Notes: a model not told the origin generated them from the sequence alone. A stretch of DNA of 64,000 bases from Bdellovibrionales bacterium (GCA_965199825.1 OZ241329.1:576001-640000); one strand, 5' to 3'; shown: positions 1-63,610, numbered from the stretch's first letter. Program-made: numbers and translations.

Positions 1-436
1 TCTGCACGCGTTCGGTCGTGCCCACGCTGCAGTACCTTGATTTTTCCTTCAGCGCTTTTTCAGGATGAGCCTTTGCGATTTCTTTTTCAAGTTGGCGCTT
101 TGTGCCTTTGGCAATATCGATCCACGTTGGCGCATTTTCTTCAGTGATCACCGAAACCAATCGATTGGCTTTGGAAGCCGAAAGCTCACCGAGTTCCATT
201 TCTTTTTTGAGTTGTGGCACTTCGGTAAATTTCTTGGCGATCTTATTGTAGATGCTTGCAAGCTCTTCAGACAATTTAAGTTGAGTTGTTGAATATTCAA
301 ACAATGAGCGACAGCCAAATTGATAATAACTTTTGTTGATCCAAACTTGCTCTAAGGCTTTTAGCAATTCGATTTCGGCTTTGCGATGAGAATCTGCGGC
401 GCGGACCGCATTCTTGTGAAGAGTGAGATGATCTAT
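1..436 (-). CDS. DUF222-like/HNH endonuclease family protein, N-terminal part (runs off the window; paralog of 62518..63324)
   Basis: Not in the ORF track. Manual translation gives IDHLTLHKNAVRAADSHRKAEIELLKALEQVWINKSYYQFGCRSLFEYSTTQLKLSEELASIYNKIAKKFTEVPQLK...KAHPEKA, which aligns without gaps to 62518..63324. An AGGAG RBS precedes an ATA codon at 436; an in-frame ATG lies at 469. Confidence 0.85.
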   Translation of the reverse strand, partial: MDHLTLHKNAVRAADSHRKAEIELLKALEQVWINKSYYQFGCRSLFEYSTTQLKLSEELASIYNKIAKKFTEVPQLKKEMELGELSASKANRLVSVITEENAPTWIDIAKGTKRQLEKEIAKAHPEKALKEKSRYCSVGTTERVQ

Positions 437-466: not shown

Positions 467-664
467 CATGGGTTTTTAAAATTACGATTTGAGGTAGGCA
501 TGATCGAAATTAGGGGTAGCGATTTTTGACCGTTCTATCGTTGATAGCGGCCTCTGGACTCACAAGAATAACAAAAAACCTTCAGCGTATGTTCAAAGCC
601 AAACACAGTCTAAAATTACCGCCAAAAATTCACGTCAATATTTATTTTGAAAAAGTCTAATTTG

Positions 665-810
665 ATTTTGGGCACGATCGCGATAGATAGTCTAAGATAA
701 CCATTCTGCCATCAGTTCCCATCAATCAAAATTCACCGTAGTTCCGGGCACAATCGCGAATTATGAATCATAAATTCAATCGAGATCCACTTGTATTTTG
801 GGCACGATGA
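665..810 (+). repeat. Cluster of three GGGCAC(G/A)AT REP-like repeats
   Basis: GGGCACGATCGCGA at 670, GGGCACAATCGCGA at 746, GGGCACGATG at 800; copies 1 and 3 are preceded by ATTTT. Confidence 0.75.
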
Positions 811-7465: not shown

Positions 7466-7990
7466 TTAAACGCGGCGACTCAACATCGCCTTGGCTTGCA
7501 CCTTTGATTTTTTAATTCCTTCAAGCTCATTGATTTGCTGAAAATCTTTTTCGCCCAAGGTCCCGCGGCTCACAATCGTACGTGTAAAGGGACGATGATC
7601 CCAAAACTTTTCGCGCTTTTGACCCGACCGTGTCCATCGATTTTTACCGGCGATCGCCATCGCGATTGCACTAGTCACCGCACGAATAAAAGGAGTATAG
7701 TTCGAGCTTTTTTTGATCTGAACATGAAAGTGGAGATGGTTACCAACATTGACCAAAGATTTAATTTTGATTCCGTAGCGATCAGAAAACTTCGCTACAA
7801 TGAGCTCGATCGCCTCTTTATTCTTTTTGCGTAAGAAGGACATGTCGCCAGTTGCGCGCGACGATCGCAGCACAAGGTGCATCGCATTTTTAGTATCAAC
7901 AGGACGTGGCTTAAGACGACCCTTGCGGCTTTTAAAAAGTTCGCCCCCGTAAGCGCGTTCTTTTGTTTTATATAAAGTTTTTTGTTCCAT
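7466..7990 (-). CDS. Y1 (IS200/RAYT-like) HUH transposase homolog, catalytic Tyr apparently replaced by Phe
   Basis: MHLVLRS, NVGNHLHF (HUH), KFWDHRPFTR, then KDFQQIN where the paralog has DYIIAN; start set at ATG 7990 by alignment to the paralog (ORF track 8041). Confidence 0.8.
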   Translation of the reverse strand: MEQKTLYKTKERAYGGELFKSRKGRLKPRPVDTKNAMHLVLRSSRATGDMSFLRKKNKEAIELIVAKFSDRYGIKIKSLVNVGNHLHFHVQIKKSSNYTPFIRAVTSAIAMAIAGKNRWTRSGQKREKFWDHRPFTRTIVSRGTLGEKDFQQINELEGIKKSKVQAKAMLSRRV

Positions 7991-8076
7991 CGCGAGCGAA
8001 GGTATAGGAGCGGCTTTGCGAACGCAAACCTTTTTCTCCACTCGACAAGTTTTCTTTAGTGAGCTAATTCAAACCA

Positions 8077-15138: not shown

Positions 15139-15678
15139 CTAGGCTTTTTTAGTTCGAGCATCCCATTGTTCTTTTTTGCGCGCCTGAAACTCTTGTCGAC
15201 TTACACTTCCCGACTCGGATTCAATTTGATTTGCAATAATGTAGTCAAAGATTCGAGCCTCATCTTTTCCTTTTGAAACCACACGAGTAAAAACTAAGCC
15301 ATCCCAAAATCTACCAAACTTTTTTCCTTTTTGAGCTTTTGTTACAAGACGTGCAATCAAACCCAAGGTGACTTTAAAAAAGGTTTTTAAAAGATGAATG
15401 GCTTGGAAGCGGATAAGAAGATGAAAGTGATTTCCAACATTCGCGAATTCAGCAATACGAACACCATAACGATGCGCTTTATCATAGATCAATTTTTGAA
15501 TCTGTTGTTTGTGATGAAAGTTTTTAAAACTCTTCACGCCTCTTGCATGCTCTGATCTCGCCACAACATGAAGGAGACGATTTTTATTCAAGGGTCTCGA
15601 CTCCTTTCGCTTACCTAAGTTCACTTTTCCACCGTAAGATTTCGTATTTTTGAATACAAATAAATTTTGTTGTTTCAT
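15139..15678 (-). mobile_element. Y1 HUH transposase (REP-associated tyrosine transposase-like)
   Basis: LHVVARS, ANVGNHFHL (HUH), RFWDGLVFTR, DYIIAN (catalytic Tyr). Confidence 0.85.
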
Positions 15679-15780: not shown

Positions 15781-16108
15781 GTGATTTGCAAACCATTTTT
15801 AAGAATCATCGGGCACTGTCATTTTGAGAAAGTAATTTAGTTCGTTTTGCCAAACGCAAGAAGAGTCATTTCATTAGAACGCCCAAATTTTCTTTCATTT
15901 AATGATCTCCTGTGATGCATTCAACTGAGCTGGAAAAAATTTTTAAAACACTGGGGCACTGTCATTTTAAGAAGGTAATTTACGTCTTTTTGCCAAACAC
16001 CAGAATATCATTCATATAGTGCGCCCAAAAATTTTTTAATTCATTAATCTCCAGTGATGCGACAGACTGAGTTGCAAAAAGATTTTTAAACACCGGGGCA
16101 CTGTCATT
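15781..16108. repeat. Degenerate tandem array, ~143-bp unit, anchored by GGGCACTGTCATT
   Basis: GGGCACTGTCATT at 15811, 15954 and 16096 (periods 143 and 142); the two full units are about three-quarters identical by eye; a partial unit precedes 15811. Confidence 0.9.
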
Positions 16109-35885: not shown

Positions 35886-36051
35886 TCGTGCCCACTCGAC
35901 GACACATTTTTTGTTTAGGCACTAAATCCGATCAAGCACCTGATCACAAAGTTCTGGTGTTGGACCATCACTCTCTTCGTGCAGGAGTGGTAAAAAAATA
36001 TCATGATCGGTCTTTGGCAGCAGTGTCATGATAAAATTTCGTGCCCGCCGA
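35886..36051 (-). repeat. Solo pair of GGGCACGA REP-like repeats
   Basis: Minus strand TCGGCGGGCACGAAATTT (core 36039-36046) and GTGGGCACGATAAAA (core 35886-35893). Confidence 0.55.
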
Positions 36052-62517: not shown

Positions 62518-63324
62518 TTAATGCCGATGATGGGCACGATGATGACCTGAGCACAAAATCGTCAGGTTCTCGATTTCATCTTTTCCACCTTTTGATCTGG
62601 GCTGTTGATGGTGGATATCAAGATGTCTTTGCTGCGTGCATCTTTCTCCTTTTTCATCGATGTGGGTACATTGACTGTTGTGCTGTTGATGGAGCTTGCG
62701 TTTGATTGTGAGTTTCGAAGAGCTTTTGGGCGGGCACGATTTTTTGAGCGGATCCATTTTCTCAAGTAATAGCTGAGTTGCGTGATCGTGGACATCTTGG
62801 ATGGTTGCGGCACGTTTTAGTTTTTGACTTAAAAGATCTTGGGCTCTTTGAATCTCTTTAAATTTATCTTCGCTCACCGCATAAGTGATTTGGATCAGAG
62901 TTGTTTCACCTACGTGTTTGTATCGTGCCCGCTCAGGGATTGCTTTTTCGGGATGCGCCTTTGCAATTTGTTTTTCTAAATTTCTTTTTGTGCCTTTGGC
63001 ATGTTCGCACCATTCGAGCACATTTTCTGGAGTGATGATACTTGCGATACGGTTAATTTTAGAAACCGAAAGTTCACCCGTTTCCATTTGGGTTTTAAGT
63101 TCAGGAACTTCAGTAAATTTCTTGGCGAGTTTATTAAAGATGCTTGCAAGCTCTTCTGACATTTTGAGTTGCTTTGTTGAGTATTCAAAAAGCGAATGAC
63201 AGCCAAATTCGTAATAACTTTTGTTGCGCCACACTTGCTCTAAAGCATTCAGCAATTCCATTTCGGTTTTGCGATGGTTCTTTGCTGCGATCACTGCGGT
63301 CTCGTGAATTTTTTGGTGGCTCAT
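62518..63324 (-). CDS. HNH endonuclease with a DUF222-like helical N-terminus
   Basis: C-terminal QCTH...RC...LDIHHQQPRSKGG...ENLTILCSGHH zinc-HNH; RBS AGGAG. Confidence 0.88.
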   Translation of the reverse strand: MSHQKIHETAVIAAKNHRKTEMELLNALEQVWRNKSYYEFGCHSLFEYSTKQLKMSEELASIFNKLAKKFTEVPELKTQMETGELSVSKINRIASIITPENVLEWCEHAKGTKRNLEKQIAKAHPEKAIPERARYKHVGETTLIQITYAVSEDKFKEIQRAQDLLSQKLKRAATIQDVHDHATQLLLEKMDPLKKSCPPKSSSKLTIKRKLHQQHNSQCTHIDEKGERCTQQRHLDIHHQQPRSKGGKDEIENLTILCSGHHRAHHRH

Positions 63325-63534
63325 TAAATATCTCCTATTTACTGAGTTAAATATAACATGAGTTTTTTTAAGAGCATTTTTGATGGGGCTCGTCTGGTTG
63401 TGGAGATCAAGTTTTTGCCGAAGTGTTTGGCTTAAGGTGCGTTTGTGAAGTGCATGTGCTTCAAAAAAGAATCGGATGTTTTCAAAAACAAGACCTTGGG
63501 CATTTTAAGCCACCTAAATTTGCGTCAATATTTT

Positions 63535-63610
63535 TTTTGGGCGGGCACGATAATTTGTTTACCTCAGCCGCGGCGGGCACGACAACTTACGAATCGGCGG
63601 GCACGACAAA
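63535..63610 (+). repeat. Cluster of three GGCGGGCACGA repeats
   Basis: Cores at 63543, 63575 and 63599, each preceded by GGC. Confidence 0.85.

Follow-up and report, generated by a model that had tools for sequence, protein, structure and literature searches.

The window analysed here is a stretch of 64,000 nucleotides (G000:C1:576001-640000) from the 2.84-Mb genome of a Bdellovibrionales bacterium (G000, hereafter the host genome). Near one end it carries an HNH-family gene of 268 aa (62518..63324 (-)), called as an open reading frame with a Pfam HNH match and predicted to encode a ParB/KorB-like HTH, a ribbon-helix-helix (RHH) and an HNH domain. At the other end lies the 5' part of a second paralog (1..436 (-); 272 codons), the rest of which falls outside the window. 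The motif GGGCACGA occurs exactly at 16(-), 670, 800, 35886(-), 36039(-), 62532, 62732, 62923(-), 63543, 63575 and 63599, that is, 11 times against 1.31 expected, a number reached in 0 of 100 shuffles. All exact copies listed in the original prediction were recovered. It had also placed a cluster of three copies at a similar distance upstream of both genes, and the clusters begin 219 nt from one start (63543 against 63324) and 234 nt from the other (670 against 436). The cluster at 63543..63606 (+) indeed holds three exact copies in the motif scan (63543, 63575, 63599), but in that at 670..807 (+) only 670 and 800 are exact, the copy at 746 being GGGCACAA, one mismatch from GGGCACGA. Likewise, the gene proposed at 1..436 is a paralog, but its start codon at 436 is ATA and it is incomplete in the window. 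Beyond the cluster at 670..807, at 870-930, there is a short degenerate tandem repeat of CCCCAACGA-like units. The two co-oriented copies at 35886..36046 (-), one intergenic and one ending a lipoate-ligase-family gene, have no HNH gene nearby and are a possible orphan pair. The system had been described as two loci; a tblastn search finds 27 near-full HNH paralogs in the host genome, plus one fragment.

The protein matches Pfam HNH over the cut-off (PF01844; E 3e-6, residues 228-267), and the zinc-binding HNH nuclease domain extends over residues ~200-268 (62521..62727 (-)), with structural matches to HNH proteins at Z up to 7.4. Residues C219, C229, H238, H239, N253, C258, H261, H262 and H266 are invariant in 59/59 aligned relatives, and the HNH and zinc-ligand pattern is intact in 25 of the 27 host paralogs. 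As regards the label 'DUF222-like' that had been given to both paralogs, Pfam DUF222 (PF02720) has no match in the 268-aa protein and matches weakly in just 3/59 relatives (best E 0.005) and in 14% of one Atlas cluster, while HTH_ParB matches weakly in 5/59 relatives. In the AlphaFold2 model (pLDDT 95), residues 16-140 match the DNA-binding domains of ParB, KorB and Spo0J (Z 6.0-6.9 with the whole model) and residues 142-195 match RHH proteins (Z 4.4-5.3, including TraM at 5.3 and NikR and MatP at 4.7). When the N-terminal domain is modelled alone the top matches are unchanged (Z 5.7-6.5), with a Foldseek probability of up to 0.72 at E 2.1; the top Foldseek ranks are ParB-family proteins at E>1, and there is no Foldseek match at E<=0.001. 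No region or Pfam match corresponds to the ParB_N CTPase domain, and the model begins with a helical domain. Because all Z scores fall below 8, the tool's safe level, the assignment of a ParB/Spo0J/KorB-like HTH domain (residues ~16-125; 62950..63279 (-); Z 5.7-6.9), an RHH (residues ~142-195; 62740..62901 (-); also seen in the secondary structure) and an intact HNH is likely and unproven. The predicted ParB-like fold would be a plausible sequence-specific DNA-binding module, and the match to RHH proteins makes dimerisation likely. ParB-family domains are described as acting as dimers on short palindromes, with a specificity switch by four residues in the text cited (PMC7383237). The HNH genes are under purifying selection, with dN/dS of 0.07-0.16 across the ten closest host pairs.

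Inside the 268-aa gene there are three exact motif copies. The terminal copy (62532..62539 (+)), which encodes H-R-A-H and forms the right end of the unit shared with other paralogs, has the codons H262, R263 and A264 fixed in 24/24, 24/24 and 23/24 genes. The linker copy (62732..62739 (+)) encodes S-C-P and sits in the same place as the palindrome of relatives. The third copy is reversed (62923..62930 (-)) and encodes E-R-A-R, a single codon being retained for R132 in 18/20 genes and for R134 in 21/23; the second paralog has a reversed in-gene copy at 16-23. This in-gene motif is conserved at the DNA level: among 64 near-invariant columns of 4/6-fold codons in 24 intact paralogs, a single codon is kept at >=85% only at R132, R134, R263 and A264, all within motif copies. 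The linker that joins the predicted RHH to the HNH has exactly one exact copy in 25 of the 27 host genes; it is forward at offset 585 in 14 genes and reversed at the offset-605 position in 11, with both present in none. The site has therefore been lost and regained in the opposite orientation, a switch suggesting that selection acts on the site as double-stranded DNA. In-frame duplications of the linker site, 2-4 in number, are found in G028 and G038.

Comparison of close copies shows a common unit of ~1.04 kb in the host genome with motif copies as its bounds. For the 268-aa gene, the unit in common with its closest paralog (the G000:C1:37218 copy, 96% identical) covers 62520..63556 (-); one end lies 6 nt beyond the nearest upstream motif and the other a little beyond the terminal motif, so that a motif copy bounds each end. 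Against another paralog it extends to ~63612. In most close host pairs the unit reaches 5-8 nt outside an upstream motif on one side and 4-16 nt beyond the terminal motif on the other. Close pairs other than that of the window start at -231 to -293, and three of the ten end nearer the gene. Two of the ten close pairs have 38-52 nt in common upstream and one ends inside the leader; this short upstream identity in three pairs counts against copying of the unit, since gene conversion would give it. By eye, neither terminal inverted repeats nor an evident target-site duplication is seen at the shared-unit ends of close host pairs. Two sister paralogs (G000:C1:534305-534540 and 575425-575600, the second immediately to the left of the window) have, past the stop codon, several further copies of the terminal motif region as degenerate units.

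Between cluster and start codon lies a leader of fixed length. At the 268-aa gene (63325..63528 (-)) it comprises TTGAC at 63524-63528, ~200 nt of poorly conserved DNA, a -10-like box of the extended type near 63350-63361, then AGGAG at 63332-63336, and may have a promoter role; at the second paralog, TTGAC lies at 634..638 (-), 202 nt ahead of the start. TTGAC is found 198-204 nt ahead of the start in 25/27 host genes and at constant distance in 7/7 genes of the relative G480 with upstream sequence, and where flanking sites are lacking the start of the shared unit tends to fall directly ahead of it. The leader has a median identity of only 38%, with alternating T and A tracts (63325-63528 and 437-638), and TTGAC has no -10 box at the normal spacing. 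The constant length suggests a spacing constraint on DNA. An RNA partner, as raised in the original prediction, finds no support, as 25 leaders have no shared fold on either strand (alignment fold energy 0, single-sequence z near 0) and the window and 8 loci have no Rfam match.

Signs of mobility include patchy multi-copy presence among genomes, paralogs that group by genome, and unit ends near sites. The comparison of filled and empty sites that had been proposed yielded no empty site: neither an empty site nor a circle was seen in 14 kb around the locus in contigs of 4 of 23 listed runs, contigs being prone to drop rare variants, and two related strains carry the gene at the same locus, which indicates slow turnover. 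Slow turnover is likewise described for RAYT systems. There is no identical pair among the host HNH genes, the closest having dS of 0.14-0.44.

Across the host genome, the upstream motif has the consensus AGCGGGCACGACAA and is found within 1200 nt upstream of all 27 HNH genes, with 151 copies in sense and 1 in antisense orientation, compared with 3.6% of 3000 random windows. The enrichment near HNH paralogs that had been proposed as a check is thus present throughout, a cluster lying upstream of 27/27. Genome-wide there are 522 copies against 55-68 from Markov models. Of these, 152 precede HNH genes and 78 lie within such genes or directly after them, 17 precede HUH genes, and the other 275 are found elsewhere. 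About 180 of these 275 form nine orphan clusters amid ordinary genes (10 orphan clusters when the one ahead of an HUH gene is included), and the other ~95 are little above background. Of 275 long-form copies of the motif, 8 are isolated. The motif is held by 17 of the 24 long tandem repeats (period >=12, >=4 copies) in the genome. Exact-repeat periods of motif arrays are 16-20 bp, with three at 25, and neighbours are never closer than 16 nt; spacers range from 8 to >100 nt and are frequently tandem copies of one another. Close motif pairs number 260 in the host genome and <=3 in each of the 383 other genomes of the order, most of which are short-read assemblies that can lose arrays. Arrays of this motif are accordingly restricted to the host among 384 genomes, and orphan arrays have also formed, in the fashion of REPs. 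However, the REP-repeat label of the original prediction fails in its strict sense, because the host motif is neither hairpin nor palindrome. Array ends scatter, with no fixed offset from the motif in the tandem arrays of the host, which counts against a fixed nick position since such a nick might leave a fixed offset. The host HNH genes show no replichore bias (15/27 leading).

The host genome also contains 17 Y1_Tnp (RAYT-like HUH) genes with motifs of their own. All 14 genes of HUH clade 1 have a different upstream motif, TGACANTGCCC, with 40 of its 49 genome copies upstream of HUH genes and none at the 27 HNH genes, and the other three HUH genes (3/3) have the upstream motif ACCTTCGCTC. 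Among the 14 largest paralog sets only three families, the HNH and the two HUH families, have a common upstream motif. The gene-motif pairing is therefore family-specific, given this restriction and the absence of the HUH motif at HNH genes. Clade 1, represented in the window by a gene at 15139-15678 (-) with motifs at 15811, 15954 and 16096 and by 13 further host genes, has 1-6 co-oriented upstream copies of TGACANTGCCC per gene and none within the gene; TGACANTGCCC is outside the TIRYT consensus, the protein falls under the RAYT and IS200 cut-offs, and the whole is a system parallel to that of the HNH genes. There are nevertheless points of contact. The HNH and HUH motifs have TGCCC in common, and the HNH motif lies upstream of two HUH genes, one of them with a 16-copy array. 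A third motif, TACCTTCGTT, adjoins 6/40 HNH-motif clusters against 0.3 expected, and a variant of it precedes three HUH genes. A spacer module around ACACCNNCGGA, seen ahead of two HUH genes, is also within 7/40 HNH-motif clusters against 0.13 expected (G000:C1:246439, 512616, 565250, 1133680, 1249026, 1575863, 2565797). Contact of the HUH family and the third motif with some arrays raises the possibility that those arrays are put in place by another enzyme.

Two repeated elements were also observed in the same genome. The sequence TACCTTCGTTC has 61 copies against 0.5 expected, which are single, on both replichores and in 34/61 cases inside long ORFs; in the window it occurs at 7994 (in 7466-8041 (-)), 18177, 21738, 33354, 38924 and 39556. 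A variant precedes the 3 genes of the second HUH clade, the 5' end adjoins several HNH-motif arrays, and a longer form has 44 copies in the host, 14 in G287, 8 in G215 and <=4 in 58 other genomes. A six-copy family of ~308 aa with an N-terminal cysteine pattern (G000:C1:1289493, 1920373, 2082809, 2255216 and two more) is possibly another insertion sequence.

The named relatives of the HNH protein are mostly from Bdellovibrionota MAGs, in agreement with the Atlas clusters, and the family comprises 7672 clusters at 50% identity (E<=0.001). Close homologs are present in 96/384 genomes of the order and in 85/251 sampled from the phylum; a metagenome scan gave 2 loci, and a search with a narrow profile gave no viral contig with a homolog. 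Homologs L286, L297 and L299 are on contigs labelled candidate division WWE3, and the Atlas rank 2 cluster is labelled Ca. Altimarinota. In a quick tree the paralogs group by genome and the host copies join those of G142, which have the linker site GGGCACGAT. Across the phylum, relatives have lineage-specific palindromes of 14-20 bp with a 4-nt centre in the same coding linker. Such a palindrome is called in 54/92 genes of the close clade compared with 92/577 control windows; a strict one is not called in the other 38/92, and mostly none in G469 and G542, though these are multi-copy, and it is called in 2/15 genes of a distant clade. The gene's own palindrome is also upstream in 13/46 genes (5/18 genomes; both counts leave out three further G268 genes with an upstream palindrome) compared with 93/3593 upstream regions of other genomes, 70 of these 93 being matches to one shared palindrome type. 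Held-out loci from other orders and classes (26, of which 23 were scored and 11 had a called site) give 6/11 compared with 9/209 cross-matches, all of the shared type. Several multi-copy genomes have the linker copy without flanking copies, which are found in a minority of genomes. A scan for 8-mer enrichment found no direct-repeat clusters like those of the host in 40 loci of four relatives, the palindromes having surfaced on a later scan.

Individual genomes show how far each palindrome has spread. All 8 sites of one palindrome in G268 are at 4 HNH genes, and 7 of 9 in G015 are at 3 genes, with flanking on both sides. G246 has 47 sites, mainly at genes or contig ends, and its genes are enclosed by inverted arrays built of modules of ~120 and ~350 nt that are bounded by the palindrome, where the module number changes. 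For their own palindrome, G336 has 36 sites and G338 has 16; among 20 regions picked away from known genes, three in G336 are tandem arrays with a period of 30-31 bp, and none of the 20 has an HNH match or a match to the HUH profile built from host genes. In G480 there are two paralog types, each with a different palindrome matched upstream and in the gene. The expectation that each clade would carry its own co-varying repeat was borne out in this form, with a motif in the gene in other clades and beside the gene in a subset of genomes. The host site (AGCGG-GCAC-GACAA) and the G246 palindrome (CTGTC-GCAC-GACAG) have GCACGACA in common, and the host motif is best read as a putative asymmetric derivative of the relatives' palindrome. 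A REP-like hairpin with CATGGATG follows the stop codon in 6/10 genes of G030 (L001, L004, L005, L008-L010), and CATGGATG is also enriched beside the distant-clade genes of G015 (L030-L040).

A residue-to-motif code was also considered and rejected. In the training set, Asn in the predicted recognition helix with a GTC arm was the best of 1220 tests, a post hoc association for which the arms were assigned by hand (10/0/3/18 across 31 representatives of lineages, a choice that hid one N+GGC exception) and with p of 0.06-0.25 from 5 independent pairs. In held-out genes, leaving out loci L262-L313, which were selected on Asn and duplicate earlier loci, those with Asn had 3 GTC and 3 other arms and those without it 2 GTC and 3 other.

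The pairing of gene and motif, the DNA-level conservation within the gene and the genome-specific expansions are directly supported by these data, as are unit ends at or near sites in the host and G246 and the orphan arrays in two lineages. The best explanation, to which we give a probability of about 0.5, is a REPtron-like HNH element whose protein would recognise its cognate site and nick the DNA close to it. Each gene copy would carry a lineage-specific site of 14-20 bp in its coding linker, and often also at its ends, to which a dimer of the protein would bind through the predicted ParB-like domain. At times the bound protein may nick DNA beside the site, and host repair of the nick would duplicate the site locally, giving rise to arrays and in-frame linker repeats; rarely, repair would copy the site-bounded gene unit elsewhere. 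No strand-transfer step is known for HNH domains, and copying must therefore lean on host repair. The same sites probably double as operators that hold the nuclease low. Binding of the cognate site is the step in which we place most confidence and is likely, and the chances of dimerisation, nicking and copying, taken together, appear evenly balanced. The original prediction of a nuclease with its cognate repeat is in this way retained as regards the 27/27 pairing, the motifs proper to each clade and the orphan arrays, and finds no support as regards the RNA partner. We further propose, as a tentative reading, an undescribed class of mobile element, in which a ~270-aa ParB-HTH/RHH/HNH protein would read a site of 14-20 bp that its own linker encodes and that can be reprogrammed, and tethered nicks would copy the element and seed non-autonomous arrays without transposase, recombinase or reverse transcriptase.

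The main alternative, possible though on the unlikely side, is that the sites are operators only. The protein would then repress itself through its cognate sites, by a loop between upstream and linker sites or by a roadblock just before the HNH-coding part, the nuclease being an effector triggered by stress or infection and the genes and arrays being multiplied by slippage, gene conversion or HUH enzymes in trans. HTH and RHH are repressor folds, the commonest layout among relatives is one upstream and one linker site or the linker site alone, the copies are old, under purifying selection and stable between strains, and the arrays have variant units in blocks, which is typical of slippage. The 13E12 genes of M. 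tuberculosis are reported to be induced by DNA damage (PMC3381160, as far as the text cited goes), and the TACCTTCGTT-adjoining clusters (6/40) and those with the spacer module found before HUH genes (7/40) would fit a role for HUH in trans. However, such operators would leave unexplained the orphan sites and arrays far from gene copies in two lineages, the concentration of one motif in 17/24 long tandem repeats, the 2-4 in-frame linker duplications (G028, G038) and the unit ends at sites, and no defence-system match extends beyond the HNH part. An improbable alternative is that the motif is the REP/TIR-like repeat of an HUH (RAYT-like) transposase, inserted beside or inside HNH genes, with the HNH protein as cargo. 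The 17 Y1_Tnp genes of the host, the 16-copy HNH-motif array upstream of one of them, the shared TGCCC and the spacer module and third motif common to array types speak for this, as do the in-frame REPs borne by RAYT subclass 2.4 in the text cited (PMC6006769). Against it, the HUH genes have their own motifs (14/14 and 3/3), the first of which is upstream of HUH in 40/49 copies and at HNH genes in 0; all 8 G268 sites are at HNH genes; the 20 orphan regions of G336 and G338 are without a match to the host-derived HUH profile; and within one genome (G480) the upstream variant of each gene corresponds to its linker variant.

Two further alternatives appear far less probable. The site could be the box of a host regulator of the LexA type, conserved through regulon membership, since 13E12 genes of M. 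tuberculosis are LexA-bound in the text cited (PMC3381160) and lexA and recA are present in the host genome. This is very improbable: the motif is absent from the 500 nt before recA, whose promoter may lie further upstream, and the 400 nt before lexA, isolated long-form copies are just 8/275, and paralogs in one genome bear different palindromes. RNA-guided HNH systems are known in IscB, HEARO and TIGR, and the clusters with their 200-nt leader might similarly be transcribed as guide or scaffold RNAs, given their repeat-spacer appearance, the fixed leader length and an HNH part nearest that of IscB. This too carries very little weight, as the spacers vary from 8 to >100 nt and in many cases repeat one another in tandem, no conserved fold or Rfam match was found (25 leaders; window and 8 loci), the linker site is used in either orientation, and the model has no RuvC or PLMP region.

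The analysis offers a functional hypothesis for an uncharacterised family of great size (7672 clusters), together with a ready target site. Because the recognition site appears to be written out in each gene, binding and nicking are testable together with cognate and non-cognate DNA. If nick-and-copy is true, REP-like repeats would arise by a second route unrelated to the first, and the family would supply compact site-specific nucleases whose sites are long and varied. If the proposed class of mobile element is real, it would parallel RAYT-REP with an HNH enzyme, would offer thousands of naturally occurring site variants, and might account for the 13E12 family. Even if the sites are only operators, most long tandem repeats of the host are explained and a natural specificity series for ParB-type domains is at hand. 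The pairing of HNH genes with a repeat of their own, an HNH version of the nuclease-plus-cognate-repeat design, is real and family-wide, and no HNH family with a cognate site is described in the literature searched, mostly the main texts of non-subscription papers. It would be categorically new if HNH-driven copying holds.

Several known systems can be compared with the HNH element. Homing endonucleases of the HNH type cut the empty allele and lack their own intact site, and IscB needs RuvC and RNA. The present genes resemble homing endonucleases in having an HNH in a selfish setting with putative nick-initiated copying, and differ in that the HNH gene carries several sites; the IscB profile NF040563 reaches 30.7 bits against a cut-off of 175, with the HNH part alone. 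Classical insertion sequences differ in having inverted ends and target duplication, neither of which is evident by eye in close host pairs; G246 has long inverted module arrays. ParB, Noc and KorB are similar in the predicted HTH fold, in the putative dimer on a short palindrome and in specificity set by few residues, as described in the text cited (PMC7383237), and different in that here there is no N-terminal CTPase, the predicted HTH is fused to RHH and HNH, and the gene itself has the site within it and close by. The 13E12/REP13E12 genes of Actinobacteria (DUF222 and HNH) are likewise multi-copy genes of a helical domain and HNH, described as 'insertion elements' and recombination-prone (PMC3381160, PMC13157036). 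However, the host protein is shorter and without a DUF222 match, and a cognate palindrome, linker site and arrays are not mentioned for 13E12 in the parts of these sources cited. The HNH protein is at most a distant 13E12/DUF222 relative. TIRtrons, as far as the text cited describes them (PMC3733652), similarly have short G-rich motifs near a nuclease gene that form families, dimers and clusters, but TIRYTs belong to the HUH class, their terminal repeats are inverted and their consensus is GGGGWSAS, whereas the present system has HNH, direct ends in the host and a consensus that does not match.

In the way it works, the HNH system resembles REPtrons (RAYT/TnpA_REP with REPs, REPINs and BIMEs). 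In the parts of the literature cited, each RAYT has its own repeat family, with in-frame repeats in its own gene in subclass 2.4 (PMC6006769), and REP clusters are reiterated in tandem along with flanking DNA (PMC3733652). Both systems thus combine a nuclease gene with its own repeat family, flanking and in-frame, with tandem clusters elsewhere and with several families bearing different repeats in one genome (PMC6006769, PMC3733652). In the HNH system, flanking by the own repeat is upstream in 27/27 host genes, on both sides in G246 and G015 and present in a subset of other genomes, and the repeat is dispersed in 10 orphan clusters of the host and 20 orphan regions of G336 and G338, with few or none in G268. 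The enzyme differs, being an HNH with predicted HTH and RHH instead of an HUH/Y1 transposase, and the HNH locus has no Y1_Tnp match and no NCBIfam RAYT match. The site differs too: the GTAG/GTGG foot is absent from the asymmetric host consensus and from the relatives' palindromes printed, and the HNH site, asymmetric in the host, behaves as a double-stranded site. The HNH system is accordingly no RAYT, since the defining enzyme and hairpin tests fail, and its genes are multi-copy (27 in the host), whereas class 2 RAYTs are mostly low-copy in the sources cited.
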